A stretch of DNA of 35,807 nucleotides from a virus (lineage: Duplodnaviria > Caudoviricetes). The notes below the pieces were generated by a model. It did not search any database and was not told where the DNA came from. It saw nothing but the letters and a program-made list of their open reading frames with translations. The stretch is from positions 1-35,807 of the IMG/VR virus record IMGVR_UViG_3300046778_000250. One strand, given 5' to 3'. The position numbers and the translations under genes are program-made. This document shows, one piece after another, positions 12,260 through 32,449 of this stretch. Each line of letters begins with the position of its first letter. Position 1 is the first letter of the stretch.

Positions 12260-12260
12260 C

Positions 12261-13937: not shown

Positions 13938-13953
13938 TGTTGTTATTCTCTGA

Positions 13954-15449: not shown

Positions 15450-16376
15450 ATGGCACAAACACTAGACCACCCGATCGAGATTTTTTACCCTGGCAATCAC
15501 ATCGATAGCCAGGGTAAAAAAGTGCGCGTCACTGATGAGCAAGTTGCGGGAATGGTGGCTGATTTTAATGCTGGTAGTCAGCGGGTGCCGTTGGTGCCTG
15601 GACATCCCAGTAATGACAATCCAGCTCTGGGATACGCGACTAAGTTGGCGTTGCGTAATGGTCGGGCGATTGTCACTGAGGTAGATGAGCTAAACCCCGC
15701 ATTTATGGCGATCGTCAATAGTGGCGAACTCAATCGGGTATCGGTCAAGCTGATACTACCAGGGCATCACAGCAATCCTGGTAAAGGACACCAACTCAAG
15801 CATATCGGCTTTTTGGGACGCTCTAGACCAGCTTTAGACCAACTCAAATCGGTTCAGTTCAGCAAGGATGATGGAGAAATAGTACTGATGGCAGATGAGC
15901 GAGATTATGAGGCGGAATTTGCCCAGAAAGAGGCGGAATTTAGCCGTAGGCAACAGGAATTAGAGGCGAAGGAAGCAAAGTTTGCAGCAATGGCTAAGTA
16001 CGAGCCATTTGTAGAGGGCTTAGTAAGGGAAGGGAAAATTACTCCAGCTCAGAAGACCAATATGGTGGGACTGTTCACATCGCTACCGGATGAAGCGGAG
16101 TTTGCTGCTGCTGATGGTACGAAGCAGTCTGGAGCGGATTTTCTCAAAACGTTTTTAGGTGCTTTGCCTAAGCAAATTGATTATAGCGAGGTCGCTAAAA
16201 CGGAAAGCACGGGCGCGACTGAGGCGGCGTTTAAGACGATGGGCAGTAATTGTGATGCAGACTCAGAAGAGTCAGAAATGCACGACAAAATCGTCGCATC
16301 TGGAGTAGATCCCACCAAAGACCCTGAAGGCTATCGAGCCGCAGTGAAAAAAGCTATGGCTAAAGGAGGTAAGTAA
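15450..16376 (+). CDS. Prohead protease/scaffold (Mu gpI-like)
   Basis: IEIF.PG.H.D..G, PLV.GHP....PA.G, RVSV, LKHIGFLG...PA. Confidence 0.88.
   Translation: MAQTLDHPIEIFYPGNHIDSQGKKVRVTDEQVAGMVADFNAGSQRVPLVPGHPSNDNPALGYATKLALRNGRAIVTEVDELNPAFMAIVNSGELNRVSVKLILPGHHSNPGKGHQLKHIGFLGRSRPALDQLKSVQFSKDDGEIVLMADERDYEAEFAQKEAEFSRRQQELEAKEAKFAAMAKYEPFVEGLVREGKITPAQKTNMVGLFTSLPDEAEFAAADGTKQSGADFLKTFLGALPKQIDYSEVAKTESTGATEAAFKTMGSNCDADSEESEMHDKIVASGVDPTKDPEGYRAAVKKAMAKGGK
15888..16376 (+). CDS. Probable in-frame internal scaffold protein
   Basis: GGAG at 15873-15876 precedes an in-frame ATG where the coiled-coil region begins; analogous to Mu I/Z. Confidence 0.5.
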   Translation: MADERDYEAEFAQKEAEFSRRQQELEAKEAKFAAMAKYEPFVEGLVREGKITPAQKTNMVGLFTSLPDEAEFAAADGTKQSGADFLKTFLGALPKQIDYSEVAKTESTGATEAAFKTMGSNCDADSEESEMHDKIVASGVDPTKDPEGYRAAVKKAMAKGGK

Positions 16377-16753
16377 TGCCAGCACCTATCAATACTGGAT
16401 TGCCAGTAAATGTAGTTCAGAGTTTATCGATTAATTACGCCAGTGCAGCGGCAGCTTCAGCCGGACAGTTGGTAGATTTTACTGGCAACTTAGTTACTGT
16501 CGCCACTACCGTTCCTTTTGGCGTGTTGCGAGAGGATGCAACGCAAAACCGAGTAGTTTCGGTTGCGACAGTTGGCATGGTGGAAATGATTGCTGGTGCA
16601 GCGGTGGCGATTGGGGCGGCGATTACCGCAGATGCTACTGGGCGCGGTATCACTGCGGCTGCGGGGAACCAAATCTTCGCGCGTGCCATGTCCGCAACTA
16701 CCGCAGCCGGACAAAGATTTCAAGCTCTAATCACTCGTGAGGGGACAACTTAA
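16376..16753 (+). CDS. Capsid cement/decoration protein (DUF2190-like)
   Basis: Ala/Gly-rich, AGAAVAIGAAITADATGRGI...ARAMSA; between protease and capsid genes. Confidence 0.75.
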   Translation: MPAPINTGLPVNVVQSLSINYASAAAASAGQLVDFTGNLVTVATTVPFGVLREDATQNRVVSVATVGMVEMIAGAAVAIGAAITADATGRGITAAAGNQIFARAMSATTAAGQRFQALITREGTT

Positions 16754-17769
16754 TGGCGATTTTATCTCTACAACAGGCGCGGGTTAATAGCCCAATCCTG
16801 ACTTCGATGGCTTACGGTATCCCGATTCAGGGATTTGTCGGAACGTCGATTATGCCAATGGTACCTGTGATGAAACGGGCGACCAAAATCATCACTTTTG
16901 CTAACAACCAGCAGAAGTACCTCTACGCTACTCGCCGCGCTCCTGGGGACAATATCACTAGGATTCAGACTAGTTATGGCGATACTGAGGTGAGTCTGTA
17001 TCAGGACGCACTTGAGGCTGAATTGCCGATTGAAATTGATGAAGAAGCCGAGGGTATTGTTGACCTTCAGACTGAGGCAATTAGCAACGTCAAGATTGGG
17101 CTAGCGACACGACTAGAAGCTGATATTTTCTCGTTGGTGAATAACTTTGCTGGTTATCCGGTGGCGAACCGCACTGCTTTGACCGCACTCACTCAATTTA
17201 GTGTAGGAACTGTTAATCCTACCCTTGCTTTCGATATTGCCAATCAAGCAGTATTGGCGGGGATTAGTAGGCTGCCTAATACGATTATTTACGGGGGTTT
17301 GAAGGCATTTAATGCAGTCAAAAATAATCCATTTATTCGCGACCAAGTTAAGTACACTACCTCTACTACTCCCAATCTCAATACCCTCAATGGGATTTTG
17401 GGTTATCCGTTTGGTAAAATCGCCACGGCAACCTATGTCAATCCGCTTGACCCAACTACCCAAATCCCATTTTTCGATAACTCGATTTGGGTTGGGTATG
17501 TACCTGGCAATGGCGAGATGACAACTAATCCCTACGACACTAGCAGCACTTTACAAGTGCTATCGGGAGCCAACAAGCGTGTACCGAGCTGGGGATATAC
17601 CTACACCCGCATGGCTGCAAAAGTGGCGGACAGAGAAACAGGATTAGTAATGGATATGCCTTACTACGGTGAGAATAATCGTACTTGGTATTTCCCAGGT
17701 GTAATCGATCGCCTCCCTGTCGTTACGGGTATGGCTGCTGGTTATTTAATCACGAACGTTGCTGCATAG
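16753..17769 (+). CDS. Major capsid protein
   Basis: 338 aa; AR...PILT..A.G....FVG....P.VPV, T.RAPG, PNTII, PSWGYTY, AGYLI.N. Confidence 0.88.
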   Translation: MAILSLQQARVNSPILTSMAYGIPIQGFVGTSIMPMVPVMKRATKIITFANNQQKYLYATRRAPGDNITRIQTSYGDTEVSLYQDALEAELPIEIDEEAEGIVDLQTEAISNVKIGLATRLEADIFSLVNNFAGYPVANRTALTALTQFSVGTVNPTLAFDIANQAVLAGISRLPNTIIYGGLKAFNAVKNNPFIRDQVKYTTSTTPNLNTLNGILGYPFGKIATATYVNPLDPTTQIPFFDNSIWVGYVPGNGEMTTNPYDTSSTLQVLSGANKRVPSWGYTYTRMAAKVADRETGLVMDMPYYGENNRTWYFPGVIDRLPVVTGMAAGYLITNVAA

Positions 17770-17776
17770 GAGATAC

Positions 17777-18049
17777 ATGAGTTTAATTATTTGTTACGTG
17801 TTGGCAGGCCCAATCGCTATGTCAGCAACAGAAATGGCTAATACTGGCGATTTGATTGAGCTGGAACAAGGTGATTTAGACCAACTCTCCCGCTGGGGAA
17901 TTGTGCGAGAAGCAACACAGGAAGAGATTGAGGCCTCTAAGCCTGCACCAACTGAGCCGGAGCCGCCAGCTCCAGAAGTACAAGAACCCGCACCCTCTCG
18001 TTCAAAATCTAAGCCTGCACCAACTGAGCCGGAGCCGCCAGTAACCTAG
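17777..18049 (+). CDS. Small post-capsid protein with Pro-rich tail
   Basis: AGGAG ribosome-binding site before ATG 17777; abuts the next gene. Confidence 0.7.
   Translation: MSLIICYVLAGPIAMSATEMANTGDLIELEQGDLDQLSRWGIVREATQEEIEASKPAPTEPEPPAPEVQEPAPSRSKSKPAPTEPEPPVT
17936..18041 (+). repeat. Perfect 34-bp direct repeat (SKPAPTEPEPP x2)
   Basis: 17936-17969 equals 18008-18041. Confidence 0.9.
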
Positions 18050-18478
18050 ATGTACGCCACACCCCAAGATTTTATCGATGCGTTTGGCGAGCCAGAGACA
18101 ATCCAGCTCACTAATCTTGATAATCCCGACACTAGTATTGTCAATCTGGTACCGCTAAACAAGGCTCTAGTCGATGCGAGTGGGATTATCGATATGTACG
18201 TGGCTAATCGCTATGTAACGCCCTTGGTGGTGGTATCGACGGTGATAAATGGCTATTGCTTGGACATTGCTCGGTATCGGCTTGATCGCATTAATCCCCG
18301 CGATGATGTCAGGCTGCGATATGAGGATGCGCTCAAGCAATTGCAGTTAGTTACCAAGGGGATGATTAGCCTGGGAACTGACACGTTGGGACAGAGCATC
18401 GATGCAACCGCAATCGATTTTGATAGTTCCGGCGCACGCAGTTATTCGGCTCCCTGTATCGATATGGGAGGGTTTTAG
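18050..18478 (+). CDS. Head-tail adaptor (Mu gp36/DUF1320-like)
   Basis: MYAT..D....FG..E..QLT, AL.DAS..ID.Y...RY..PL, C.DIARYRL, RYEDA...L. Confidence 0.9.
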   Translation: MYATPQDFIDAFGEPETIQLTNLDNPDTSIVNLVPLNKALVDASGIIDMYVANRYVTPLVVVSTVINGYCLDIARYRLDRINPRDDVRLRYEDALKQLQLVTKGMISLGTDTLGQSIDATAIDFDSSGARSYSAPCIDMGGF

Positions 18479-18542
18479 GTGGCGATGATGTACAAAGACA
18501 GAGAAATTATTAGCTTAGACAAGATCTTACTAAGAGAAAAAA

Positions 18543-18731
18543 GTGACTACAACTACTACCAAATACTTTGCTTACGCGCACCTTCCACCACAACTACAAG
18601 AGGTGTCAAAGCCAATAGGGGAACTAGCAGAGCTGATGGATGCTTCGCTACCCGATGGTCCAGAAAAATCAGCCGGAATGCGAAAGCTTCTAGAGGCGAA
18701 AGATTGCTTTGTTCGAGCCAAATTAGGGTAA
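18543..18731 (+). CDS. Small helical-hairpin protein, possibly Acb2/Tad1-like
   Basis: YFAYAHLP..LQ.VSKP..ELA......LPDGPEKSAGMRKLLEAKDC.VRA; functional call is tentative. Confidence 0.6.
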   Translation: MTTTTTKYFAYAHLPPQLQEVSKPIGELAELMDASLPDGPEKSAGMRKLLEAKDCFVRAKLG

Positions 18732-18735
18732 GCCA

Positions 18736-19251
18736 GTGGCGAACATCTTACAGCTAGAGGAGGCGATAATCGATCGCCTGGAAACCAAGTTAAAGCAGTA
18801 CACAGATACTCTCAATGCTCAGAATCCACCAGAACAAGCAGTATCGGTCAATGTGCGGGAACTGCCTGTCAATCCTGAAGAAATCAACGGGGTGGTGACG
18901 GGGACACAAGTATGGGTGGCATTCAGAAAGGAAACTTTCGAGACTCCCTCCAGAAGCGGTGTATCTAATCCGCTCAAACCACCATCACAGGAAAGAGAGA
19001 TTACGTTTGAATTAATCGTTCGAGCGCAGGCGTTGAGGGTGAAGGGGCATCAACGGATTTATCCAATCCTGGATGTGATTCGGGATGCTCTAACTGGATT
19101 TATGCCATGTGCTTTACACGTTGGCAATGGGATGACTAAACCACTCTATCCCGTACAGGCGGGGTTTACCAATATGGGTCAAGCTCTCTGGGTTTACTCG
19201 ATGACATTTGCTTGTCACGCAATCTATTCCGCACCAATTAAGGAGGTCTAA
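18736..19251 (+). CDS. Tail terminator / neck protein (Mu gp37-like)
   Basis: LEEAI..RL, Q.REI.FEL......LR, Y.ILD.IR.AL.GF.P, LWVY...F; position. Confidence 0.75.
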   Translation: MANILQLEEAIIDRLETKLKQYTDTLNAQNPPEQAVSVNVRELPVNPEEINGVVTGTQVWVAFRKETFETPSRSGVSNPLKPPSQEREITFELIVRAQALRVKGHQRIYPILDVIRDALTGFMPCALHVGNGMTKPLYPVQAGFTNMGQALWVYSMTFACHAIYSAPIKEV

Positions 19252-20034
19252 GTGAGTCAGTTATATTCGGGCATTGGTAAGATCGTCTTACTCGATCTTA
19301 ATCAGACAATTCCAGGCTTTCTATTCGCCGAACCAGTGGCGTTTAAAATCAACGCTAACAGCTCTGAAATCGTCTCTTATAAGATGGTTTGTGGTCGAAA
19401 AGTCCCAGCCGGAGCCAAAGAGGGACTAGTTGAGCGGACTTGTGCAATGACGATCGAAGCGGTCAATCGGGCTGCTTTGGAGATAGCCCTCGGTATTCGA
19501 TCAGCTATTTCTGCATCACTCGATCTAGTCGAACTCCGTAACAAAGGTGTCCCCACTACGGGTGCTTTTGAAATCACCGACCTCGATATCGGTGCAGCGT
19601 TGGGAGTACAAGCCTATGTGATTGAGAAGGGTGCTTGGGGTGACGCTGGCCCACTAACTCTACTCGCGACAGGTTCCCCAGCTACAGGGCAATATCGAGT
19701 TGATGGAACTAACAATAAAATCATCTTTAATGCCGCTCAAGCTGGTGCGCCGATTGCCTACACGCTAATCAAAAACTATGCGGGTTTGCGGACGATTGGC
19801 AAGGAACAAGGGGCGGCACAGCTCAATAATATCGGCTTACAGGGGGTATTATTTACCGATTCTGGCACCGAATATACGAAGATTGTCATCCCTAAAATGA
19901 TTCGCACCAAAGCCACTAGCCTCGACTTTGGTGAGAAACTCTCGCTCGAATTAGAGTATCGAATGGTAGTCGCATCTGGGCAGGAAAATGACCATTACTT
20001 AGTTGAGATGCCTGCTGGTTACGTCGCTTGTTAA
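19252..20034 (+). CDS. Major tail tube protein
   Basis: 260 aa, beta-rich; between terminator and chaperone/tape measure; no sheath gene seen. Confidence 0.65.
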   Translation: MSQLYSGIGKIVLLDLNQTIPGFLFAEPVAFKINANSSEIVSYKMVCGRKVPAGAKEGLVERTCAMTIEAVNRAALEIALGIRSAISASLDLVELRNKGVPTTGAFEITDLDIGAALGVQAYVIEKGAWGDAGPLTLLATGSPATGQYRVDGTNNKIIFNAAQAGAPIAYTLIKNYAGLRTIGKEQGAAQLNNIGLQGVLFTDSGTEYTKIVIPKMIRTKATSLDFGEKLSLELEYRMVVASGQENDHYLVEMPAGYVAC

Positions 20035-20037
20035 CTT

Positions 20038-20613
20038 ATGCAGTGGCTTGATTTTCCCGCACTAGCAGAGTTTGGCGATAGACATGGCATCGTCCGACCT
20101 ATCTATGGGATGACGGTGTTTGGGCGGTTTGAGTTTGCAGATCGACTATGCGATTTGCAAACTATTCTCGAAGAATCACCTGATAACTTATCGTGGGCAC
20201 AGCTCTATATTGATGACACCAGATTCCGTAACCTGATTGCCAAAGCCTTGGGCTGTTGGGGGATTGATGTCGAATGGTTGGCACTATCCCAAATCGAACA
20301 GTTACTATTTGCGCGAGGTGAGGAATGTGGCTGGTTAATCGAACTATCCCAACCCAAAGAATCATCGTCAGAGGGTAAAGCAGTAGGAACACTGGCGGAG
20401 ACGATTGCGATTATCTCCAGTCACTGCCAATCGCTCACTGAGGCTCTGGAGTTGGCGAATACTGTACCCTCTGACTTACTAGTGGAAATCACCAAGGCAC
20501 GAGCAAACATGAGCGAGGCACAGGAACAGGGGAAGAATCCTCAACAACAAGACAAAGAGCGGCATCTGAAGGAAAACTACAACAAGATAATGTCAGCGTT
20601 TGACAAGCAGTAG
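20038..20613 (+). CDS. Putative tail assembly chaperone
   Basis: Acidic helical protein directly after the tube gene; positional call. Confidence 0.45.
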   Translation: MQWLDFPALAEFGDRHGIVRPIYGMTVFGRFEFADRLCDLQTILEESPDNLSWAQLYIDDTRFRNLIAKALGCWGIDVEWLALSQIEQLLFARGEECGWLIELSQPKESSSEGKAVGTLAETIAIISSHCQSLTEALELANTVPSDLLVEITKARANMSEAQEQGKNPQQQDKERHLKENYNKIMSAFDKQ

Positions 20614-20627
20614 CGAGGTTTTAAAAT

Positions 20628-20954
20628 ATGCTCCAGAAAATCAAGCTGATAATCGAGACTGGTAATGGGAATGTGGCGATCGCTGCCGATAGCGGTCAGA
20701 TCGATGTAGTTTGGCAGCCGTTACTCGATATTGCCTTTCGTGGTCAGGTAATCGGTGATTTTAATAGGGTTCCTGCTGGTGATATGGGTAAAAACCTAAA
20801 CGATGCGATCGATTCACTCCGCAACGATCGCGGCTCTTATGCGAGTTTAACACCAGCACAATTAGGGCTAAGACCGAGGATTTTGGAGTTTTTGACCAAC
20901 TGGCGAGAAGATTGTCGCGAACACCCAGCAACCTTCATATCGATCGAACCATAA
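20628..20954 (+). CDS. Hypothetical tail-region protein
   Basis: GAGG ribosome-binding site, 108-aa ORF in operon. Confidence 0.6.
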   Translation: MLQKIKLIIETGNGNVAIAADSGQIDVVWQPLLDIAFRGQVIGDFNRVPAGDMGKNLNDAIDSLRNDRGSYASLTPAQLGLRPRILEFLTNWREDCREHPATFISIEP

Positions 20955-20964
20955 GGCAAATTTA

Positions 20965-21288
20965 ATGGTTAAAAATTTAGTAGTTTCGGAATCAGAACAA
21001 TATCCAGAAGAACCTAAAAAACACTACTTGTATAATCTTGTTCCTATTTCAGTAAAAATTAAAGTCTTTAAAATTTTAGAGTCTGGCATAGATCCAATTC
21101 TTTTCGATAAAGAGCAACAGGAATTGTTAGACGATCTGTTGTCTGATGCTGATATCTTGCTTTTTCCAGACAAAAAGAACTTTCCCAAGGTTAAGGAAAT
21201 TTACGACGCACTTACAGATGCTATTGCTAAACTAGCTTTTGTACCATGTGGAGTAGAGATTTTTGGATATAGATACGAGGTGATTTGA
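20965..21288 (+). CDS. Hypothetical protein in an AT-rich insert
   Basis: 107 aa, ends LAFVPCGVEIFG; visibly more AT-rich than the flanks. Confidence 0.65.
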   Translation: MVKNLVVSESEQYPEEPKKHYLYNLVPISVKIKVFKILESGIDPILFDKEQQELLDDLLSDADILLFPDKKNFPKVKEIYDALTDAIAKLAFVPCGVEIFGYRYEVI

Positions 21289-22136
21289 TGCGCCCTAGTC
21301 CAGATATTATTGGCAATAAATTTGGGATGCTCTTGTGTGCCGGATCGAGACAAGAATTAACTGGTAAAACCCGTAAAACATATACAAAAATATGGCAATT
21401 TCAGTGTGATTGCGGTAAATTAGTCGATTTATGCAGGCATGATGTAGAGAGAAACGGACAAAGATCGTGCGGCTGTTTGGGGCGCGATCGCAAGGGTAGA
21501 GTAGACAATAAGCGTCGTCCTGATAATATTCAGGGGCAAAGATTCGGTAATTTGGTCGCGATCGAGATGTTGCCAGAGGTACGCGAATGGAATTCAGCAA
21601 TTTGGAGATGCCAGTGTGATTGCGGAAATATTGTCAACTTCAACCGCAAGCGATTAAACAAGGGCATTAGGCTCAACTGTGGGGATAAGAAAAACCATAA
21701 ATTCTATTTAAAAAAATACCCTGAATCACCAAGCACCTTACCAGAAGAAGTGTGGAAAATTGTTGAGCAATATCTAATTTTCACCAAAGCAGAATATAAG
21801 GCTGATTTTCAATCACAAGCAATTGAAGACGAAAAATTTAATCGTTTGCTCCGAGCAGCGTTTATTCTATACTGGCGGCGATCTCAGGGTGAGGATTTAG
21901 ATAAACTATTTGAGCGGCGATACATTCACAAGTATTTAAGATATGCAAGGATTTCTATTAGGGTAAAAGCAATTCGTGAAAGGCATGGAATTAGGGATAT
22001 AATTAGAGATGATTTAAGCCAAATAGGTAAGTACATGACCAACGCAACAATGTCCGTTGACTCAGAAGGAAATCTTCGTGAGGGAAGTATTTTGATACCT
22101 AAAAAACCTAGAAGATTTAAGTTTAAAACCTGCTAA
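21285..22136 (+). CDS. Protein with two Cys-rich domains of the HNH-associated type but no nuclease motif
   Basis: G.KFG.L...WQFQCDCG...SCGC and GQRFG.L...WRCQCDCG...NCG; no IDRID/NCRWAT motif. Confidence 0.7.
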   Translation: MMRPSPDIIGNKFGMLLCAGSRQELTGKTRKTYTKIWQFQCDCGKLVDLCRHDVERNGQRSCGCLGRDRKGRVDNKRRPDNIQGQRFGNLVAIEMLPEVREWNSAIWRCQCDCGNIVNFNRKRLNKGIRLNCGDKKNHKFYLKKYPESPSTLPEEVWKIVEQYLIFTKAEYKADFQSQAIEDEKFNRLLRAAFILYWRRSQGEDLDKLFERRYIHKYLRYARISIRVKAIRERHGIRDIIRDDLSQIGKYMTNATMSVDSEGNLREGSILIPKKPRRFKFKTC

Positions 22137-22143
22137 TAAATAA

Positions 22144-25100
22144 ATGGCTAACAATCTCCGTCTACAGCTCGAAATTCTCACCAGCGGTGGTGCTGCTACT
22201 GTGGGTGAGTTGCGGCGGATTCGGGAAGCGGCGGCACAAGCGGCGGCGGAGAGTAGACAGCAATCAGCCACTCAACAACAGGGGAATACTCTTTTGGGTG
22301 GTGGAATTGCTGAACTAGCATTTCGATACAATACGGTGGTCGGTGCGCTCCAGAACCTCAGAGCCACTGCCCAACCAGTCTATGATGCGCTGATTGCCAG
22401 TAATGAGAAGCTTAATGCTCAGATTCTATCCTCTCAGACTAACCTAGCATCCTCAACAAGGCTGTTTAAATCGGGTGTAGAAGTTACTGACCCAACGGCT
22501 AAGATCCAAGCGTCGGCGGGGGCATTGAGAGCAGCAATTAAGCAGATTGAAATCGACACCCAATCACTCGTTGGGGTTACTTCTGCTCAAGTAAACGAAC
22601 TTTTCCAGATTACTCTCACTAATGCGGGGGCACTCAACAATCAATCTAAGCAATTTCCTGATGCGATCGCGGCTGCTACGTCTCTAACCAAGGGTTGGGC
22701 GGCATCGCTCAAGGTGGTAGGAATCCCACTGAACCAGGCGCGACAAGAGATTAACTCGATTATCAAGGGTCAAATTACCCAAGATTCGCTACTTGCAAAG
22801 AATCTGAATATCACCAATCAACAGGTGGAGGCTTGGCGGAGTCAGGGTAAATTAGTTGATGAGCTGAACAAGCGATTGGATGTTTTCGTGGCGGGGAATG
22901 CGATCGCAGCTCGGAGCATCGAAGGTATTAGCTCGAATATCTTGGACTTGAGCGAAAGAATTGCCCGTAATGTGGGTGAGCCATTACTAGAGCCGTTAAT
23001 CGACTCACTGGCTGAAGTTGAGAAATACCTTAAAGCTAGTGAGGATGCAATTATTGGCTTTTTCCGTCAACTGTCCGACGAAATCTTACGGCAAGGTGGA
23101 ACTATTGCTGAAGCGTTTAAACCTTTAGGGAAAACACTGCTCGAAATTGGCGCAGATTTGGGGCCGATCGCTCTCTCTGCCATCAAGGGGATATTAAATG
23201 TACTATCGGGGCTAGCTCAAGTCATCGCACCACTAGCCAATCAGTTGGCTAGTGTGGTTAAGTTATTGGCAGATTTTGCAGCTACCGATCTGGGCGGGGT
23301 AGTGGTGCAGACGGCGGCGGTTGTGCTGGTGTTGGGACAACTGAGTGCGATTATTAGTGGTTTGGCTGTGGCTGCGGTACCTGCTCTGGCGACTGCCGTT
23401 CTATCCTTAGCATCTAAAATGCTGCTACTAGAGGGTAGTATTGGCGCAGCAGGGCTAATTAGTGTTGTCTCTAGCGTGAGCATGGGTGCTTTGAGCGGAG
23501 TCCTTAAGCTATTGGCTGCTGATGCGATCGCGCTAAACCTAGCACTCATACCTCTGACAGCAGCGATTGGATTAGCGGTACTAGTTCGCACAACTAACGA
23601 CCTGAAGGATGCCAACGAGGCTTTAGAGGAATATGGCAAGCAGATTCTCACCACTGCTGATGGGGTATTCTCAATCTCCAGTGAACTCAATCGGTATAAC
23701 AAAATTGTCGAAGATGGCGGCGTACTCACTGATAAGCAAATTAGCCGCCAGAAACAACTTAGAGTATCGGCAAGCGCACAAGTAGAGGGGATCCAACTCC
23801 AGATTAAAGCACAGAAGGAACTCACCAAACTCAGCGACGACCAGGCACAGCAGCGCGATAGTAACATCAAGCAATTAGAGGCACTAGCTGAACGACTGGA
23901 AAAAGCAGCAGGTGGGCTGAAGTTGCAAGCGAAGGAACTGGAAGATTTAGGCACTACGTCTGAATTATTCGCAAAGAAGCTAGAGAACGCGAAGCGAAAC
24001 TTCAACAGTCCCGCTGATGCCGAACAGTTCAAGGAGGGCGCGAAGCAGATTCTTTCCCTCGTTAAATCAGGGGTAGATGCAAAGCTACTAAGTGTTGAGG
24101 CGGGACGGAAAGAGATAGAGGCTGTCAAGACCAATACTAAGGTGGAGTTAGAGACTCGTTTTGCTGCAAAGGAAGCGATCAATAAACTCTACGATAGTCG
24201 AATTTCTAAGGTCAAGGAATTAATCGAAGTTGATGCTTTACAAGCCGCGACTGGACTGGATGGGTTGAGTAAAAAGGTAAAGGGATCGGTTGAGGTTGAT
24301 ATCTTCCAATCTAGTACTGGCTTGGACGAGCTGGCTAAGATTCGAGATGACGCAACTTTGGAAGCCAGCACCAGGCAAAAGGCCGCGCAGCAAATTGTTG
24401 GCATTAGAAAAGAGCAGATCGATGCCGAATCAGTGGTTATCGCTGCGGGACAAGCCCGAATTGCGGCTCTCCAATCCCAGCGGCGGATTGGTGAAGCCAG
24501 GGCAGACGAAGAAGCTACCAAACTAAAAGTAGCTGAAATCAACAAGCGAATTCAAATTGCAAAGGTGGAGTTTGAGAATGCTACCAATAGCGATAAACGG
24601 GCAAAGTTTAAAGCGGAAGCTGAGAAGAGTGTGATCGAATTCGATAAGCTCGAAGCAGATCTGTTGGTTCGCCGACGGAAACGGGCAATTGAAGATTTCG
24701 ATGAGCGGCGGAACCTCATTAAGGCTCAGAACGACTTAGGATTGATTGATCGAGGTACATACAATCAGCAAATTTTAGCCAACGATCTGGCTCAGAATGA
24801 CGCAGCAATCAACCAACAGCGAAAAGCATTAGGGTTGCTCTCTGTCACTGATAAAGAGGGTAGAGAGGCAATTAACTCTCAAATTGCCCAACTCCAGAGC
24901 AAGCGAGTGGAGATTGCTGGAGCTTTCGATCAGGCAGATCTCAAGCGTCAGACCGAATTTTTCGACCAAGAGTTGACCGCACTGGAAACAGCTAAAAATG
25001 AACGGGTAATTACTGAGTCCGAATATGCCCAGCAACGCACTCAAAATCGTATCCAACAGGCGGATGCTGAGATTGCTGTGGCTCGACGTGAGTTGACGCG

Positions 25101-26868
25101 ACTGGGTGCCAATGATATTGAAGGACGGAATGCGATTAACGCCAGAATTAATGAGTTAGGCTCAAAACGGCTCAAAACACTAGAAGAGTTTTATGGTGCT
25201 GAATTGGCACTAGTGAAGGATGCTCAGGCGAAGGTGTTGGATTTGATTAATCAGTCTGAGCAGCAGAGATTAATCGACCTGCGAAAGTTGGTGAATCAGC
25301 GATTGATTCGCCAAGAGGATGCTGATAAAGCTCGGAACCGCTCGACTGTTGCCAAGCAACGGGCGGAACTTCAACAGGCACAAGATTTTGAGTCAGCATT
25401 GGCGCGAATATCGGGGGCGGTGCGGAGTCCTGAAGCTGAACGTGTCTATCAGCAACAAGTGAGGGATGCACGGTCTAAAACTCTGAGTGTGACATTGCAG
25501 TTGGCTCAGGCTGAGGGGAATGAGTTAGAACGGTTGCGGGGATTAGCTCTGAAGGGGATTGAGGATGAGGTTTCGGCTCGCGCTCGTTCTGTAGACTTGC
25601 AATTATCCCAAATCGCACAGGTGAGTGGGGAACGGGAACGGGCGAGTAAGGATGCTGAGGCTAGTGCTGGCCGCGAAGTTTTTGCGCTTGATTTGGTGAC
25701 TAAAACGCTGGAACGCCAGAATTCCCTGCTAATTGCGAGAAATAATCTCACAAAAGCCCGTTTTGATGCGGCAATTAGTGAGGGTGATTTGGAGTTAGCA
25801 CGGGTGAATCGAGCGATCGAACTCAAACGTCAACTCGACAGCAATCTACCAACCGAACAGCGAATCATTTTGATGCGGGAACTGGCGGATTTGACGCAGA
25901 ATAGTGGCGCGTCTGAATATCAACTGGTTCAGCAGAAATTAGCGATCGAGCAGCAGAATGCAGCGGTGAAGCGAGAGAGTGTGCTGTTTCAACAGGCAGG
26001 CGATAGGGCGGCTCTGAGCGTTGAACAGCAGAAAATAGACTTAGCTAACCAACGGGCGGTTATCGAGGCTAGAATCGCCGAATTGAAGGCGAAGCAGGCG
26101 GTTTTGGATGCTAAGTCGGTTGTTGACCAGACGGAGCTGAAGAGCAGGAAGTCGATTGATGCGGCGAATTTAGCACTTGAGCAGGCGAAGGCGTTACAGC
26201 CAGGACGGGAACGCGATAAGGCGATTGCGGATGCTAAGAATCGGCTGGCAATTGCGACTACGGAAGCGGAAACTAGTACGGCGAATGCCTTGCAGGGTGT
26301 AGATTTAGCAAAACAACAGGCTGAGTTTGCCAGTCAGACTACCTTGCAAGCAGTGGAGCAGGTGAAATCGTTTAGCAGTGTCAAGGATTTGCAGGCGGAG
26401 ACCCTCAAGACGCAGCAGAACATGGTGCTGGAACAGTTGAAAGCGGCGGAAGCAGCTAAAAAATACGCGGATGAGTTGGAACGGGCAAAGGCGGCATTGA
26501 CTCAGACTTCCACCACTTATAGCACTCCGCTGGTATTCCAAGCACGGGCGCGAGGTGGCTCGGTAAGTAGTGGGCAAGCTTATATCGTGGGAGAGAATAG
26601 TCCTGAATTATTCGTCCCTGGCGTGTCGGGAACGGTGCTAAATCGGGAGCAGATTTTAAAGAATCTAGGAGGTTTGGGTGAGCTGAGTTTAAATGTGGGA
26701 GGGGGGAAGGGGGTAGATAATCAGCAAGTTGTAGCGGCGGTACAGTCGCTAGAGCAAACAATTCGCAGCCGTCCGCCTGCGCCGATTGTGGCTAATTTTG
26801 CGGCTGCTGATGATGGGCAATTAGATAAAATGTTCGCGATTCAACGTTCGGCTTTGAGGATTACGTGA
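22144..26868 (+). CDS. Tape measure protein
   Basis: 1574 aa, Ala/Gln/Glu-rich coiled coil, central hydrophobic stretch, C-terminal RARGGSV..G..YIVGE.SPELFVP. Confidence 0.93.
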   Translation: MANNLRLQLEILTSGGAATVGELRRIREAAAQAAAESRQQSATQQQGNTLLGGGIAELAFRYNTVVGALQNLRATAQPVYDALIASNEKLNAQILSSQTNLASSTRLFKSGVEVTDPTAKIQASAGALRAAIKQIEIDTQSLVGVTSAQVNELFQITLTNAGALNNQSKQFPDAIAAATSLTKGWAASLKVVGIPLNQARQEINSIIKGQITQDSLLAKNLNITNQQVEAWRSQGKLVDELNKRLDVFVAGNAIAARSIEGISSNILDLSERIARNVGEPLLEPLIDSLAEVEKYLKASEDAIIGFFRQLSDEILRQGGTIAEAFKPLGKTLLEIGADLGPIALSAIKGILNVLSGLAQVIAPLANQLASVVKLLADFAATDLGGVVVQTAAVVLVLGQLSAIISGLAVAAVPALATAVLSLASKMLLLEGSIGAAGLISVVSSVSMGALSGVLKLLAADAIALNLALIPLTAAIGLAVLVRTTNDLKDANEALEEYGKQILTTADGVFSISSELNRYNKIVEDGGVLTDKQISRQKQLRVSASAQVEGIQLQIKAQKELTKLSDDQAQQRDSNIKQLEALAERLEKAAGGLKLQAKELEDLGTTSELFAKKLENAKRNFNSPADAEQFKEGAKQILSLVKSGVDAKLLSVEAGRKEIEAVKTNTKVELETRFAAKEAINKLYDSRISKVKELIEVDALQAATGLDGLSKKVKGSVEVDIFQSSTGLDELAKIRDDATLEASTRQKAAQQIVGIRKEQIDAESVVIAAGQARIAALQSQRRIGEARADEEATKLKVAEINKRIQIAKVEFENATNSDKRAKFKAEAEKSVIEFDKLEADLLVRRRKRAIEDFDERRNLIKAQNDLGLIDRGTYNQQILANDLAQNDAAINQQRKALGLLSVTDKEGREAINSQIAQLQSKRVEIAGAFDQADLKRQTEFFDQELTALETAKNERVITESEYAQQRTQNRIQQADAEIAVARRELTRLGANDIEGRNAINARINELGSKRLKTLEEFYGAELALVKDAQAKVLDLINQSEQQRLIDLRKLVNQRLIRQEDADKARNRSTVAKQRAELQQAQDFESALARISGAVRSPEAERVYQQQVRDARSKTLSVTLQLAQAEGNELERLRGLALKGIEDEVSARARSVDLQLSQIAQVSGERERASKDAEASAGREVFALDLVTKTLERQNSLLIARNNLTKARFDAAISEGDLELARVNRAIELKRQLDSNLPTEQRIILMRELADLTQNSGASEYQLVQQKLAIEQQNAAVKRESVLFQQAGDRAALSVEQQKIDLANQRAVIEARIAELKAKQAVLDAKSVVDQTELKSRKSIDAANLALEQAKALQPGRERDKAIADAKNRLAIATTEAETSTANALQGVDLAKQQAEFASQTTLQAVEQVKSFSSVKDLQAETLKTQQNMVLEQLKAAEAAKKYADELERAKAALTQTSTTYSTPLVFQARARGGSVSSGQAYIVGENSPELFVPGVSGTVLNREQILKNLGGLGELSLNVGGGKGVDNQQVVAAVQSLEQTIRSRPPAPIVANFAAADDGQLDKMFAIQRSALRIT

Positions 26869-26869
26869 A

Positions 26870-27307
26870 ATGTTTATCACTTTTGAAGGCAGTCAATCTA
26901 CTAATCAATATTTATCACCGCAGACTAGTCATTTAGAGCTATCGCATCCGAGTTTAAGTGATAAATTAATTCTGGCGGAATGGGATAATCAACCATACGA
27001 GAATTATCAGACGGGACAGACTCGATCGAATGGTCGCAGTCTCTTGGGAGCGATTCGACTCCAGGGGGATAACTGGAAGAAGGGGCAATGGGAAGGTAAT
27101 TTTTTGGTGAAGTCGGCTCAGTCAGTTTTGTTCGAGCAGTTATTACAGGCACAGCAAGATGATACTTTACCTTGCAATTTAATCGATCGCTGGTTTGAGG
27201 GGGTGGTGGTGACTAAGAATGTGTGGATTGATATCGATCGACAGTATTTGAGTTTGGTGGCGGCGAATAGTTGGTTCCGGCTTCAGTTTCAATTGTTGGA
27301 GGTGTAG
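26870..27307 (+). CDS. Putative distal tail protein
   Basis: 145 aa directly after the tape measure gene; positional call. Confidence 0.5.
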   Translation: MFITFEGSQSTNQYLSPQTSHLELSHPSLSDKLILAEWDNQPYENYQTGQTRSNGRSLLGAIRLQGDNWKKGQWEGNFLVKSAQSVLFEQLLQAQQDDTLPCNLIDRWFEGVVVTKNVWIDIDRQYLSLVAANSWFRLQFQLLEV

Positions 27308-27309
27308 CG

Positions 27310-28404
27310 GTGGAGCTTAGGATTGGGGATAGAAATCCGGTAACGGGTTTATATGATGTCATCTGGCCTGACGGTGGGGTGACACAAAATGGGGTGAAGA
27401 TTTTTAATTCTGAGCATCAGTTTGGGGATGTGGTTTTAGCTACCCAGCGAAGTGATGGGATGATGATTTTGGATGGGGTAAAAGCAACGTTGACAGTGGC
27501 TACCGAGCTTGGAATTCTGAAGTTTGGGGAGCAACCTGTGGGGTATCTGAACGGGCAGGTCTGGAACGAAGAAGAAGAGATACTTGGTACTTATGTGAAA
27601 ATCGAAGTCGTTGTTTTCCGGTCGCCGTACGTTGTAACGACGGGAGAGCCACAATCTCTGGGGAATTACCCTGTTTTTGTTGACCCACACTTATTTATTC
27701 CTGGCAGTGGCAGCGTGTTTACTGGCATACCTCCTGGTGCGACCGTGCCCAATATACTCCCCAATCCGTTTGCAGGGTATGACATTTTTGAGCCAGGTGT
27801 AACAACTGAATTCCTTTACCAATCGCTCCCTTACGAATTGGTGCTATACCGATACTATGCTGGGTTCTTTGAGCCGCCTGTTTTTGTAGACATGCTATAT
27901 GCGGACTTCGTAGCGGGGCAACGTCCGTCATGGTGGGTCGCTGACGATTTTCAATCCCAAGGTGGTACCAGTATCGTTAATGAATGGTTCCAAACTATCA
28001 GAACTACTACCGTTGTATCCCCCCCACCAACTGAGTTCGGCGCGATGGCTTTTTATGCGGAAGATGCTAGTGGCAGCTATTGGTCGAACTTACCTAATTT
28101 TCCTGGTAAGGTTTTCCCAATTACATCTGACGGGGTGCATGAGCTGCAACTAGACCCAAGCAAGTTTAGTGGGAATGAAATCATCATTCATTGTGTGCCG
28201 ATTTCGCCGCCGACTTCTGCTACTTTTGGGCTAAGGACTGAAACGATTAAACGCAGGCAACCTTACTCATTTACTGCTAGCTCTCCCACACCTTTAGCGG
28301 CAACATCAAATACACTGACTGAGGAGGTGCTGGGCGGTTCGCCAGCCAACTCTAAAACAGCATTCATTGTTAATTACAACAAGGGGACACGCCAACTTGC
28401 TTAA
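27310..28404 (+). CDS. Tail-tip protein with paralogous N-domain and aromatic/Pro-rich C-terminus
   Basis: In-frame GTG at 27310 just after the upstream stop; N-terminus resembles 28367..28642. Confidence 0.6.
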   Translation: MELRIGDRNPVTGLYDVIWPDGGVTQNGVKIFNSEHQFGDVVLATQRSDGMMILDGVKATLTVATELGILKFGEQPVGYLNGQVWNEEEEILGTYVKIEVVVFRSPYVVTTGEPQSLGNYPVFVDPHLFIPGSGSVFTGIPPGATVPNILPNPFAGYDIFEPGVTTEFLYQSLPYELVLYRYYAGFFEPPVFVDMLYADFVAGQRPSWWVADDFQSQGGTSIVNEWFQTIRTTTVVSPPPTEFGAMAFYAEDASGSYWSNLPNFPGKVFPITSDGVHELQLDPSKFSGNEIIIHCVPISPPTSATFGLRTETIKRRQPYSFTASSPTPLAATSNTLTEEVLGGSPANSKTAFIVNYNKGTRQLA

Positions 28405-28642
28405 TCAAATTCGTTATCGACAGCAATATCGACAAATTCAAGCTCGAATCGAACCTGGCGTGGGTAATATGGCTACTTACGGAGATAGGGATGTGGTGAC
28501 AGGGTATCGGCGTGTTCAGACTGCGGACGGAGGTGAGAGCATGGGGCAATATCTGAGTAATTCGGAGCCAGTCGGGGTGATGCCACTGGCTCGATTTAGT
28601 ACAATTGGATTGACGGGATATATTAGCCAGAAGCCTTATTGA
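28367..28642 (+). CDS. Small tail-tip protein (start uncertain)
   Basis: GDRDVVTG...V...DGG...G....NSE motif shared with the upstream gene. Confidence 0.65.
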   Translation: MLITTRGHANLLNQIRYRQQYRQIQARIEPGVGNMATYGDRDVVTGYRRVQTADGGESMGQYLSNSEPVGVMPLARFSTIGLTGYISQKPY

Positions 28643-30831
28643 TGCTCGATTATACAGTCCCACCATTTCAGTTCTTAGTCGGCGGGTTCGATGCTAGCGA
28701 GTATCTCGACAGTATTAGTCTGTCGGTACCGATGCATGAGCCTGGACAGCCGTTATTGTGGACGGGTCAATTCAAGGTGTCAAACAATCTTAGGGCTGTG
28801 GCTAATGGGCTGACTGAGGCATCGTTTAGTGAGTTTACTAATCCAAGCATCTGGCGACCGTTTCAGGCACCTGTACGGCTGAATATCAAGGGGTATCAAA
28901 GTCCGGTGTTGCGGATTGAGAATTATCGATACAACCGACAGACTAAGAGCGGTGAGGGGATTTTGACGCAGATTCCGGCGGCGGTTGCGGGGGATCGCCC
29001 TGGGGAAAGTGTGGTGTCGGGGACGATTGGGACGGCGATTGATAGTTTGTTGGTTGCGGCGTTTCGAGGGGCGACGGTGCAGCCTGGTAGGGCGGTGGCT
29101 GGGGATGGTGGGATGCTTGATGTGCCGCTGAGTACGCGGGATCCGTGGGGGGATGCGGTGCGATTGGCTGGTTTGAACTGGAATTGGTTGGGGGTCAATG
29201 GTGCGGAGGCGATTTTTAGTGTCAATGGTGCTGGCGGTGGGTTGGTATTTAATCGATCGATCGAGCAGGTAGAATTAGTGCCAGATTTGGCGGCGATTTA
29301 TCAGTCGGCTAGTCGGGTAATTGTGACGGGGGCAAGACAGGTTATCGATCGGGCGAACACGCAGGAGCAGTTACCTAGTGCGCCGCGCCCTAAATTCAAG
29401 ACGACGCGGGAGGAACGCCCATATAGTACGGTATTTCCAACTGTGCAAAGTACTGCACCGATTGTATTTGAAGAAAAAACGATTGTTTATCAGTATTGGG
29501 ATGATGATAGTTTTGCGGATTTACCTAGCCAGACCGCGCTGGTAAGCTTTTTATATGACATCCAAAGCCAGACGCAGACGGGAATTAATCCATATCAACG
29601 ACCGCCAGACTTAAATACACCGCTGCAAACCATGACCATGAAGCGGCAACCGATGGGATATCTGTTTCCCAGTGCGGGGGTGAATACTAGCTTGGTGGTA
29701 GCAGAACTAATTATTGAGTCAGGCTTGCGTAAACTAACGCTAAAACCACGCGGGGTGTTGTTTCCGACCGAAACAGCCAATACGACGCTGGCGATCGAGA
29801 AGCGGGAGACTTTGACTTCAGCAGCGATCCGACCTGGAGCGCAATTAACGCCAGTTAGTACGGACGCAAACGGGCAAGCGCAGGTATATGAGACTAGGCC
29901 AAAATTAGAACCGCCACAGCCGGTTGCTACTCGCCCACTGAAGACTGAGGTGCTGCGCGGTGAGGCTCAATTGAGTCCAATTGGTTGGGTTCCGGTATTG
30001 GCGAGACCGTTGGTGGTGGATTTTGGTTTCCTGCCAGATGCGGCGCGAGCGAGTTTCTTGGCGCAGAAACTCGCGATTCGGGAACAGCGCAGACGAGACC
30101 AGGTGCTGGTAGATATGCCGATTCCTGATGAGTGGCTGGCTAATGGTTGGCCATTATTGGGCCAGGCGGCGATTGGGGGTAGTGTCTATTTGATGGACGG
30201 CTGCGCGTTGTCGATTGCTGATGGAGAGGCGAAGTTTGGCTTTACAGGGGGATTGGTAAGTCGGGGTGCTGTTATTGATGTCGGGGGTGTTCCGACGGTG
30301 GTACAGCAGCCACAGTATCAATTCGAGACTAGCTTAGAAGGCTCGATCGTGCTTGAGCTGGATTTGACTGCTGCTATCGCCGCAGGAATCGAATCGACGA
30401 TTCGATTCGAGTTGGATTTGGCGAGTGGAATTCGGGTGGATCTACAGCCAGAAATTGCTGTTGATGGAGCTGTGTCTGTGGCTGGTGGGTTAATGGTGAT
30501 TTCAGAGATCGTCAATGAGATCGCCACCATCTCCGCTAGTGGACTAGTACTGACTCCAGAAGCTGTAAATCAGGCGGTGGTGTCAGTAGGAGTCGGTGCG
30601 ATGGCTGACGGAGTTGTGAGGCTGGAATCCTCCATCTCTACGGGGGTATTGCAGCGGTTGACGTTTACGGTTAGTCCTGCTTCTGAAGCAGAGGGTTCGA
30701 TTGCTGTGATACCCGTACAGACGCTGACGTTTACAGTTAGTCCTGCATCTGAAATAGAGGGTTCGCCTGCTCCAGTTCCAGTGCAGACTTTGACGTTTGC
30801 GGTTAGTCCAACTACTCAATTAGAAGGCTGA
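28639..30831 (+). CDS. Large tail-tip/hub protein ending in three Calx-beta first-strand repeats
   Basis: 730 aa in the tail module; C-terminal (Q.LTF.VSP....EG)x3. Confidence 0.7.
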   Translation: MMLDYTVPPFQFLVGGFDASEYLDSISLSVPMHEPGQPLLWTGQFKVSNNLRAVANGLTEASFSEFTNPSIWRPFQAPVRLNIKGYQSPVLRIENYRYNRQTKSGEGILTQIPAAVAGDRPGESVVSGTIGTAIDSLLVAAFRGATVQPGRAVAGDGGMLDVPLSTRDPWGDAVRLAGLNWNWLGVNGAEAIFSVNGAGGGLVFNRSIEQVELVPDLAAIYQSASRVIVTGARQVIDRANTQEQLPSAPRPKFKTTREERPYSTVFPTVQSTAPIVFEEKTIVYQYWDDDSFADLPSQTALVSFLYDIQSQTQTGINPYQRPPDLNTPLQTMTMKRQPMGYLFPSAGVNTSLVVAELIIESGLRKLTLKPRGVLFPTETANTTLAIEKRETLTSAAIRPGAQLTPVSTDANGQAQVYETRPKLEPPQPVATRPLKTEVLRGEAQLSPIGWVPVLARPLVVDFGFLPDAARASFLAQKLAIREQRRRDQVLVDMPIPDEWLANGWPLLGQAAIGGSVYLMDGCALSIADGEAKFGFTGGLVSRGAVIDVGGVPTVVQQPQYQFETSLEGSIVLELDLTAAIAAGIESTIRFELDLASGIRVDLQPEIAVDGAVSVAGGLMVISEIVNEIATISASGLVLTPEAVNQAVVSVGVGAMADGVVRLESSISTGVLQRLTFTVSPASEAEGSIAVIPVQTLTFTVSPASEIEGSPAPVPVQTLTFAVSPTTQLEG
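30652..30828 (+). repeat. Three 66-bp-period coding repeats
   Basis: Units start at 30652, 30718 and 30784 (CAG...TGACGTTT.C.GTTAGTCC...GA.GG). Confidence 0.9.
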
Positions 30832-30835
30832 TGAC

Positions 30836-31738
30836 ATGTTTACTTTTACAGTTACTCGAAATGCTGGCGACGATGTTAATTTGCCGATTACTGTTGACTT
30901 TACAGTTGGCGGCACGGCTACTTATCTGACTGACTATACCGTCAGCGGCGCGACTAGTTTCTCGGCGACGATGGGGTCGATTTTGTTGCCAGCGGGTCAG
31001 GCATCGGTATCGTTCACCGCCGCACCTGTACCGGACTCGGTTTTTGAGCCGAATGAAACAATTATCTTGACTCCACAGGCGCAACCGTCGGTGTTTGTAA
31101 CGGGGGCCGGATCGTCATGGACTGCGACGATTACGAATGATGACAGTAGCGTATCATTAGTTGCATCGTTACAGTTTGAGGGTGTTAACAATAGTACCAT
31201 CATGACCGATAGTACTGGTTTAAACACCTGGACTAGCAACAGCAGCGCGGCGATTTCGACAGTTCAGTTTCACGATGGATCGAGTAGTCTGTTATTAGAT
31301 AATGCTGCCAAAACAGTATCCTCACCTTGGTCTGCTAACTTGAGTTTTGTTGGTGATTTTGAGTGGTCTGGCTGGATCTATCCCACATCAACATCTGGCG
31401 CAAATAGAGTAATTTGCGGGACTGCGATGGGAGGCTCCAGCGGCAATGCTGGGCACTTTGTGGCAATAGATAACGGAAATTTGATTTTTCGTCACTGGAT
31501 TAATGGCACCACAAACGCGGTGTGCTCTGGTGTTGTGGCAAATACTTGGCAATCATTCAAAGCTGTGCGCGTTGGGACAGCTTTGACTCTGTACCTTAAT
31601 AACGTACAGGGATCTACTGGAACTGCTGGCGCGACTACGCCTGCTAACCAGTTTACGATTGGTGGTGTGCCGTCAAATGGCGGCTTTGTCTCGAATTTCT
31701 TGGGATACTTAGATAACTTATTACTGAAAAAACTTTAA
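30836..31738 (+). CDS. Receptor-binding/adhesin protein: Calx-beta (lacking first strand) plus LamG/ConA-like domain
   Basis: FTVTR...ITVDFTVGGTAT..TDY...D.VFE.NETI.LT...ATITNDD; then DF..SGWIYP, NTW.....VR.G..LTLYLN, FLGYLDNL. Confidence 0.85.
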   Translation: MFTFTVTRNAGDDVNLPITVDFTVGGTATYLTDYTVSGATSFSATMGSILLPAGQASVSFTAAPVPDSVFEPNETIILTPQAQPSVFVTGAGSSWTATITNDDSSVSLVASLQFEGVNNSTIMTDSTGLNTWTSNSSAAISTVQFHDGSSSLLLDNAAKTVSSPWSANLSFVGDFEWSGWIYPTSTSGANRVICGTAMGGSSGNAGHFVAIDNGNLIFRHWINGTTNAVCSGVVANTWQSFKAVRVGTALTLYLNNVQGSTGTAGATTPANQFTIGGVPSNGGFVSNFLGYLDNLLLKKL

Positions 31739-31741
31739 TGT

Positions 31742-32449
31742 ATGCCTACTACTGCTTTCTCGATCGATTCTTTAATCTCCAACTGCAATGATGCGTTCCC
31801 AAGTACGGGAACATGGGGCTATTTCACGCTACTGAAGGGGGATGTGGCGACTGCTTTGAGTTATACGGCAAATGCGACGACGAATGCACTGACGACGGCG
31901 ACGGCGCATGGGATGGTGACGGGTTCCCGATTGCGGATGGTAGGCGGTACTTTACCATCACCGTTGCTGACGAATACCGATTATTTTGCAATTGTCTCTA
32001 GCCCCACTGTATTGACGTTGGCGACGACATTGGCGAATGCACAGGCGAATACTCCTGTTGACCTCTCTGATGCGGGTAGCGGTGCTCTGACGCTGACTGA
32101 GCAGGTATTGACGGCGGCGGATCCGTTGTCGGTGTTGGTGAACAAGGAAGTGAGTCACCCATCTTGGACGGCGCGAACTATCATCGACAATCTGGGCGCG
32201 GCGGCGAATGTGTTGGGAATGGCGGAGAAACCACTAAAGACGTTTAGTGTGAATAATACGAGTCCGACGGTGGTATTGAGCTATCAGCACTATCTGTTTA
32301 TCGAGTCGGCGGTGGCGGCTGCGGGTGCGTTGGGAAATGTACCTGTTGGGGCGGGGTTTGTGCTGAGTAGTGAGTCAGCGGTCCAGGTAATTAATCCTGG
32401 TGATGCACCACGGGCGGTATTCTTTAAGCTACGGGCTAGGAACGTTTAA
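31742..32449 (+). CDS. Tail-associated structural protein
   Basis: AHGMVTG.R......LP.PL...TDYF......L.LATT..NA module seen in phage structural proteins. Confidence 0.65.
   Translation: MPTTAFSIDSLISNCNDAFPSTGTWGYFTLLKGDVATALSYTANATTNALTTATAHGMVTGSRLRMVGGTLPSPLLTNTDYFAIVSSPTVLTLATTLANAQANTPVDLSDAGSGALTLTEQVLTAADPLSVLVNKEVSHPSWTARTIIDNLGAAANVLGMAEKPLKTFSVNNTSPTVVLSYQHYLFIESAVAAAGALGNVPVGAGFVLSSESAVQVINPGDAPRAVFFKLRARNV

Follow-up and report, generated by a model that had tools for sequence, protein, structure and literature searches.

The DNA analysed in this study is a whole virus record of 35.8 kb (IMGVR_UViG_3300046778_000250, hereafter the window), in which the gene of a baseplate hub protein is followed by a separate gene for an adhesin. 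The adhesin begins with a Calx-beta-like domain that lacks its first strand, and the C-terminus of the hub carries this strand in three copies. We consider it probable that both proteins form a multivalent donor-strand system, in which the hub copies would each complete the fold of one separately made adhesin; the binding is predicted by structural modelling. A first-pass annotation had noticed the split domain and offered three explanations, a programmed +1 frameshift, donor-strand complementation, and a 1-nt insertion or assembly error. Split homologues, a Met fixed at the split and a 1:3 docking model favour donor-strand complementation. Beyond that annotation, we identified the upstream protein as a baseplate hub and found that both the number of strand copies and the adhesin head vary across relatives.

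Hub, adhesin and junction in the window

The structure predicted for the hub matched, in Foldseek searches, the baseplate of an Anabaena contractile injection system (7b5h, E 2e-11), MuSo2 (3cdd, E 2e-9) and Mu gp44 (1wru, E 2e-6), all with probability 1.0, and the 730-aa protein thus has the fold of gp27/Mu gp44-like hubs. The predicted local distance difference test (pLDDT) was 71 overall and below 50 over most of residues 566-730, with the hub modelled alone. Hubs of this fold are trimeric at the tail tip. Trimeric hubs are also described in PMC10966104 and PMC13252515.

The donor copies follow each other at a spacing of 22 codons (Table 1), and Tandem Repeats Finder detected the repeat with a period of 66, 80% matches and a score of 190. 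They are in register with the first strand of intact Calx-beta-like domains: V-S/T-V/L-A-V-S-P-A/S-S-V-x-E-D-G in intact domains compares with L-T-F-T-V-S-P-x-S-Q/E-L-E-G in hub copies, with donor L.F.V.P.S..E corresponding to intact V.V/L.V.P.S..E. A matrix built from 320 distinct intact first-strand segments ranked the copies 1st, 3rd and 4th among 39,323 six-frame windows of the contig, at modest scores (7.0, 2.7 and 2.6, where intact strands have a median of 29). The repeat detection and the matrix ranks confirm that the upstream gene ends in three first-strand copies, as annotated. Pairwise, the window copies differ at 5-10 of 15-16 codons, with 3-5 of the differences silent. Since the codons have diverged, silent sites included, the copies are not fresh duplicates.

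The start of the adhesin at the second strand, also claimed at first pass, agrees with a profile of the domain, for which 513 hits were collected from 138 of 181 long relatives. This profile matches the window adhesin at model positions 41-140 of 141 (104 bits, E 1e-32), and positions 22-37, the first strand, are missing from the adhesin and present on the hub. The expectation that skipping one base gives a seamless Calx-beta domain held in part. The read-through product matches PF03160 from model position 7 (E 0.008), but with 16.6 bits it stays below the cut-off of 27; PF03160 gave no match on the acceptor alone. Because of this score, the acceptor is labelled here, from its sequence, as Calx-beta-like and not as a full Calx-beta domain. 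Its identity to intact Calx-beta repeats is about 35-51%. The longer acceptor hits (31 of the 36 noted) are not all annotated and most of them list PF03160, which gives homology to annotated Calx-beta domains, and hits to NCX domains are weak (E 0.13-0.6). In the adhesin alignment (A2), the acidic residues D33, D67 and E71 are invariant and E74 is nearly so. The donor Glu lines up, in a weak alignment, with a conserved Glu of NCX1, which we take to be a Ca2+ ligand.

The head of the adhesin matches PF13385 with 33.8 bits (cut-off 27.6). In fold searches, domain 4 of AbnA (Z 19.2, root-mean-square deviation (rmsd) 2.3, 176 residues aligned) and the tailspike of cyanopodophage Pan3 (Z 16.8, rmsd 3.0, 186 aligned) were found, and the head is thus LamG/ConA-like by Pfam cut-off as well as by its jelly-roll fold. 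It is likely glycan-binding. Matches of the two-domain adhesin model were to LamG heads and occupied the list; neurotoxin and NTNH entries among them reflect the common LamG jelly roll and have no bearing on toxicity.

Bases 30820-30838, between the two open reading frames (ORFs) of 730 and 300 aa, read TTA GAA GGC TGA TGAC ATG, and the +1 frame is open only from 30824, both as first described. The GAAGG proposed as a usable ribosome-binding site is indeed Shine-Dalgarno (SD)-like, but weak (-3.8 kcal/mol; +2.1 to -13.0 for other genes of the operon). Two contigs from other samples and studies, X3 (30756-31198) and X4 (30701-30931), span the junction with more than 31 bases on either side. Both are identical to the window at the junction, with no indel and no substitution within 30800-30924, and have 8 and 11 differences elsewhere. 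Runs X6 and X7 do not cover the junction, and X1 was left out of this count as a possible source sample. An assembly error is excluded, because two other samples carry the unchanged junction although they differ elsewhere, and the split of the hub and adhesin genes is real. A second phage, which has diverged, is present in run X1; its contig aligns with the hub up to 30261 and again from about 32120, with the repeat and adhesin region replaced (window 28628-32142).

Relatives of the hub and the adhesin

The nearest locus available as DNA is from a Chamaesiphon metagenome-assembled genome (MAG; locus L002), at 55% identity. Two donor copies are followed there by a TGATG overlap and by an adhesin in the -1 frame (+1 in the window), with a strong SD (-9.8 kcal/mol).

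Among 50 hub homologues, 16 carry the donor strand at the C-terminus: one copy was found in 1, two in 10, three in 4 and four in 1 (with the last copy cut short), hence at least two in 15 of 16. The copies are spaced by 19-22 residues in 20 of 21 intervals, and in 15/16 of these hubs the protein ends 15-16 residues past the start of the last copy. Hub homologues at 46-93% identity end at the same place, with varying last residues (EG, EGN, EGS, EGT, EGD). The first-pass annotation had asked whether homologues are fused or split: the Calx-beta-like domain body is present in 0/50 hub homologues, searched at lengths that would include a 1030-aa fusion, and the hub domain in 0/181 long Calx proteins. 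At the C-terminus of the other 34 hubs there are either short tails or LamG, RTX or PPC-like domains fused directly to the hub. Several hubs without the strand have other short conserved tails (IEG repeats, FELII(S/E)(D/E), GGGYGYGY; P0030, P0038, P0041, P0043, P0048; P0008-P0013, P0021, P0036; P0028, P0034), which, judged by sequence, may be other docking plugs.

Conservation was compared between internal and terminal donor copies with the first search pattern, which missed two copies. At positions outside this pattern, internal copies hold Ser in 21/21, Glu in 19/21 and Gly in 19/21 cases, and terminal copies in 14, 15 and 15 of 17; internal copies are conserved as well as terminal ones. Terminal Glu-Gly may be conserved in part because its codons form the SD, a constraint that does not apply to internal copies.

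Adhesin searches gave 14 hits, of which nine start with Met at strand B, one consists of the LamG head only, and four are intact domains in other proteins. The nine match the domain profile from position 41-42 to 140 of 141, with the first strand missing; one of them is 98% identical to the window adhesin. The L002 adhesin, in addition to these nine, likewise begins with Met at strand B. Met was found at this column in 0/429 anchored intact domains (513 hits, of which 429 were anchored on the strand-B motif and 84 dropped; these are repeats and relatives, not independent samples). The truncated domain is followed by widely different heads; overall identity is 31-45%. The head family behind the truncated domain of P0060 is fused straight onto the hub in L001 (44% identity, E 1e-64). 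Four further hub-adhesin pairs have equal longest contigs (14667, 5651, 22567 and 13022), and these lengths, the sole basis for the pairing, suggest that hub and adhesin are adjacent there.

On a quick tree of hub cores, the donor strand requires 9 gains or losses, at least 4 of them forced by strong branches. Because of this scattered distribution of the strand, the C-terminal end of the hub appears, from the sequences, to be an exchangeable module.

Wider searches added little. The best 150 hits of a search in 1.84 billion representatives were mostly long intact Calx repeats, with only four truncated adhesins. Searches for related loci gave none with the single hub, one each in three collections with the hub alignment, and none with the adhesin alignment. 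Patterns of the junction DNA gave 2 unrelated matches and, separately, 0, and tblastn with the hub found no match in 50,697 phage and 72,556 plasmid records. In genomes, a close hub was found in 1/401 (order), 1/39 (family) and 6/401 (class; five of them distant).

Docking model

We modelled the last 63 residues of the hub together with three copies of adhesin residues 1-104 (1:3, own alignments), a check that had been proposed at first pass. The score was 0.77 (median of three runs), and the best of 3 controls reached 0.00; the score mark is reached by 116/157 solved complexes and by 2/215 mismatched pairs. At least 89% of contacts agreed between runs, and the pLDDT of the partners was at least 65. 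In the model, each donor copy (segments 671-685, 692-708 and 713-730) takes up one acceptor, which contacts it through residues 1-9, 16-20, 51, 64-66, 78-80 and 84-102. The pLDDT of the acceptor was 80-82 with the donor and 62 with unrelated partners. What the model itself contributes is the prediction that three acceptors fit on the 22-residue spacing.

Proposed mechanism

According to the reading that we favour, the adhesin would be translated from its own ATG, probably coupled to termination of the hub. Each donor copy of the hub would then slot into the open groove of one adhesin, pair with strand B at residues 1-9 as well as with the last strands, at 84-102, and fill the core. Since hubs of this fold are trimers and each chain has three copies, a tail tip could hold up to nine heads. 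The conserved Glu of the donor may complete a Ca2+ site, and docking would then be stabilised by calcium. The cassette may have arisen by fission of a fused hub-Calx-head gene and subsequent tandem duplication of the strand, and it would let the phage change the type and the number of heads independently.

Alternative explanations

Several observations weigh against multivalent docking. The good model score may reflect memory of, or likeness to, solved Calx-beta domains, and the docking job (1:3, own alignments) is unlike the calibration set. Donors hold Gln/Glu where intact strands hold Val (73%), and Glu-Gly is lost in three copies of P0044. Only two distinct junctions were observed as DNA, and the four other pairings were deduced. 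The homologue P0019 has a single donor copy, and the two copies of L002 are identical over 46 nt, which fits recent neutral duplication or homogenisation. The SD of the window adhesin is weak, as stated above. Both junctions, if frameshifted, would give a natural linker (11 and 12 residues from Glu to Arg; 12 in 307/317 and 11 in 3/317 intact domains), and PMC5009743 reports that frameshifts onto phage Ig domains are indifferent to direction.

Part of these observations would also suit a simpler scheme, in which complementation does take place in trans, with a single copy engaged per hub chain and the extra copies being neutral or spare tandem duplicates. The identical L002 copies and the single copy that suffices in P0019 agree with it, and spacers of 19-22 residues are short, so that nine heads on a trimer may crowd. 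We regard it as rather unlikely, since two or more copies are the rule among donor-bearing homologues scattered over the tree, internal copies are conserved like terminal ones, and three domains fit the window spacing in the model. It is also conceivable that the halves no longer interact, that the truncated domain folds alone or self-associates, and that the repeats belong to the beta-rich spike of the hub. AlphaFold2 still builds a beta-sandwich from acceptor residues 1-100 alone (pLDDT 61-71), and the hub extension ahead of the repeats is beta-repeat-like as well. However, the first-strand signature is retained exactly in the repeats, which form the end of the protein; both observed loci and the four deduced pairs have donor as well as acceptor; and the confidence of the acceptor climbs from 62 to 80-82 only with the donor. 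This explanation is therefore very improbable.

A frameshift at the stop codon as the main route, which would leave some of the hubs covalently extended by Calx-LamG, in the way of the Ig-like extensions of SPP1, A118 and T3 structural proteins, draws on the continuous read-through domain, the natural linker lengths, and the finding that such shifts are common on phage structural genes in either direction (PMC9022992, with SPP1 as an example, and PMC5009743). A re-pairing shift site, as in programmed-frameshift Ig extensions, was found at neither junction: the +1 slip from GGC to GCU in the window re-pairs at 1/3 positions, and for a -1 slip in L002 re-pairing would be possible for GGA in the P site (on GGG) and impossible for the codon in the A site. 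Because L002 has the opposite frame and the window codon cannot re-pair, a programmed frameshift is unlikely. Moreover, Met sits exactly at the split, in contrast to all anchored intact domains, the hub ends vary, a fusion would use the last copy only and leave the others unexplained, and no in-frame fusion is present among the 50 hubs or the 181 long Calx hits. The near-frame spacing of the junction is also expected after fission of a fused ancestor, and a low-level fusion product may coexist with docking in trans. The frameshift option of the first-pass annotation is thus weakened, with the linker lengths still in its favour. Its third option, a one-base insertion, an assembly error or recent pseudogenisation of a fused gene, accounts for the fact that skipping a single base restores the frame. 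With the same junction in two other samples, homologues that end at the same place and a different yet equally split junction in L002, insertion or assembly error is refuted, and the chance left for this explanation as a whole is negligible.

Table 1. Positions in the window of the hub, the adhesin and the elements at their junction.
Feature	Position	Strand	Remarks
Baseplate hub / tail-tip protein, 730 aa	28639..30831	+	gp27/Mu gp44-like core ~1-545; beta-rich extension ~566-670 (low confidence); three C-terminal donor copies
Donor copy 1, first strand of Calx-beta-like domain	30652..30696	+	hub residues 672-686; sequence and docking in model (671-685)
Donor copy 2	30718..30762	+	hub residues 694-708; sequence and docking in model (692-708)
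Donor copy 3, ends at stop codon	30784..30828	+	hub residues 716-730; sequence and docking in model (713-730)
Junction	30823..30838	+	weak SD-like GAAGG within last Glu-Gly codons, tandem TGA x2, 4-nt gap to ATG in +1 frame
Adhesin, 300 aa	30836..31738	+	
Acceptor, Calx-beta-like domain without first strand	30836..31147	+	adhesin residues 1-104; profile match, register alignment
LamG / ConA-like head	31154..31738	+	adhesin residues ~107-300; PF13385 and fold search

Relation to known systems

Multivalent docking of this kind would work like the donor-strand complementation of chaperone-usher pili (PMC2500206), where an Ig-like domain short of one strand is completed in trans by a peptide of another chain and the tip adhesin is held in this way. 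The adhesin shares the Ig-like fold that is incomplete by one strand. However, the strand missing from it is the first, whereas pilus subunits lack the C-terminal one. Its donor strands are arrayed at the C-terminus of a scaffold and do not come as one N-terminal extension per subunit, and the acceptor has no donor of its own and would form no polymer. In addition, the system is a virion part made in the cytoplasm, and no chaperone or usher family was detected among the 19 and 26 window proteins scanned, which are not all ORFs. By analogy, the window system, known here from sequence and a model, would follow the same principle without being a member of the chaperone-usher class. The term 'donor strand exchange' is also used for sheath subunits of extracellular contractile injection systems (PMC13266070).

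In the branched systems of receptor-binding proteins (RBPs) in KP32, K1-5, G7C and CBA120 (PMC13352976), separately encoded, exchangeable RBPs likewise dock on a structural anchor by a short conserved module. In those systems, the secondary RBP bears the peptide, and a complete T4gp10-like domain serves as the socket. In the window, the peptide belongs to the scaffold, occurs in several copies, and corresponds to a part that the RBP's own domain lacks. A T4gp10-like/XD domain is absent from the Foldseek matches shown for the hub, the last 165 residues of which were modelled at pLDDT <50. The frameshift extensions of SPP1 (gp17.1*), A118 and T3 (PMC9022992, PMC5009743) likewise have an Ig-like domain encoded in another frame directly after a structural gene. 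They append a whole domain, whereas the window domain is cut after its first strand, the strand is multiplied, and the second part has a fixed start of its own.

The donor matches the first strand of the Calx-beta repeats of bacterial surface proteins (PF03160; P0066-P0246) and of the Ca2+-binding domains of NCX. Among the relatives examined, their domains are always on one chain, except for the probable fragment P0201. The window domain is below the Pfam cut-off. In the cohesin-dockerin scaffoldins of cellulosomes, one scaffold with repeated docking sites gathers several separately made modules, and both partners are complete domains; docking in the window would instead be fold completion. 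In the literature searched, main texts with few subscription papers among them, we found no account of an adhesin that docks on a phage hub by a donor strand.

Virus, likely host and further loci

The window codes for an integrase, terminase, Mu-type portal, gpF, gp36, gp37, protease, scaffold and major head protein (family scans). A tape-measure-sized ORF of 1574 aa has a run of tail genes alongside, and the hub gene lies after the tape-measure gene. As a lead only, an ORF of 260 aa at 19252 is similar to tail-tube clusters (atlas 0.96) in which 11-25% of members carry YomU_Tube, and no sheath family was matched in the same scans of 19 and 26 proteins. Because of the tail-tube-like ORF and the lack of a sheath match among the scanned proteins, the phage is likely a temperate siphovirus. 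All samples listed as carrying the window sequence are freshwater or aquatic metagenomes, with no RNA datasets among them. We infer a cyanobacterial host, since the nearest DNA locus is from the Chamaesiphon MAG and one hub homologue is labelled Chroococcidiopsis.

The portal and gpF genes point away from the protease-capsid-tail operon, and the terminase genes are also on the minus strand (10080-14808 (-) versus 15450-32449 (+)), so that the head module has an unusual divergent arrangement. Two HNH-type genes are located between the terminase subunits (7105-7758) and between tail chaperone-sized ORFs and the tape-measure gene (21285-22136).

Two genes upstream of its hub, L002 encodes an intact Calx-beta-like domain (3985-5175; 37 bits, model 19-136), which is not found in the window counterpart (27271-28404) and may be where the split domain came from. 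In IMGVR_UViG_3300037462_000386 (L003, 7790-7960), a distant hub (31% identity) ends in VTASGGNP, followed by a TGATG overlap and a gene that starts with MPYIYST. The junction falls within the A.GG..PY motif of He_PIG-like domains (atlas 0.84, a lead only), and the L003 sequence is possibly a second, independent split, of a He_PIG-like domain. At locus L008 (1690-2649, G584), the chain of a distant hub includes TIG domains as well as an intact He_PIG domain, which scored 29.9 bits against a cut-off of 24; by its domain order this hub would be the fused counterpart of L003. When the two L003 halves were aligned pairwise with this He_PIG domain, 399 and 254 of 500 shuffles scored as high, so that neither alignment was significant.

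Significance

Donor-strand complementation is a known principle; what would be new is the multiplication of host-binding heads by a repeated donor strand, which is not described for phages in the literature searched. We lean slightly towards the wider idea that a family of temperate cyanophages tunes the number of its receptor-binding heads by the copy number (1-4) of a 15-residue strand, captures exchangeable adhesins by completing their Calx-beta fold and Ca2+ site, and thereby owns a natural multivalent split-domain tag-and-catcher that evolved at least twice in the hub family, the second time as the He_PIG-like split of L003. Known routes to exchangeable RBP modules are fusions, frameshift extensions and T4gp10-type branching, and fold completion on a repeated strand would add another. 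If true, the head type could be changed by the swap of one gene and avidity by duplication of ~60 nt. Among the short 'orphan' repeats at the C-terminus of tail proteins, and among Ig-like domains clipped at their N-terminus, many would then be docking pairs that annotation missed or filed as frameshifts. The parts are small (a 15-residue strand and a 104-residue acceptor), and a pair that works would amount to a protein connector that is both natural and multivalent.

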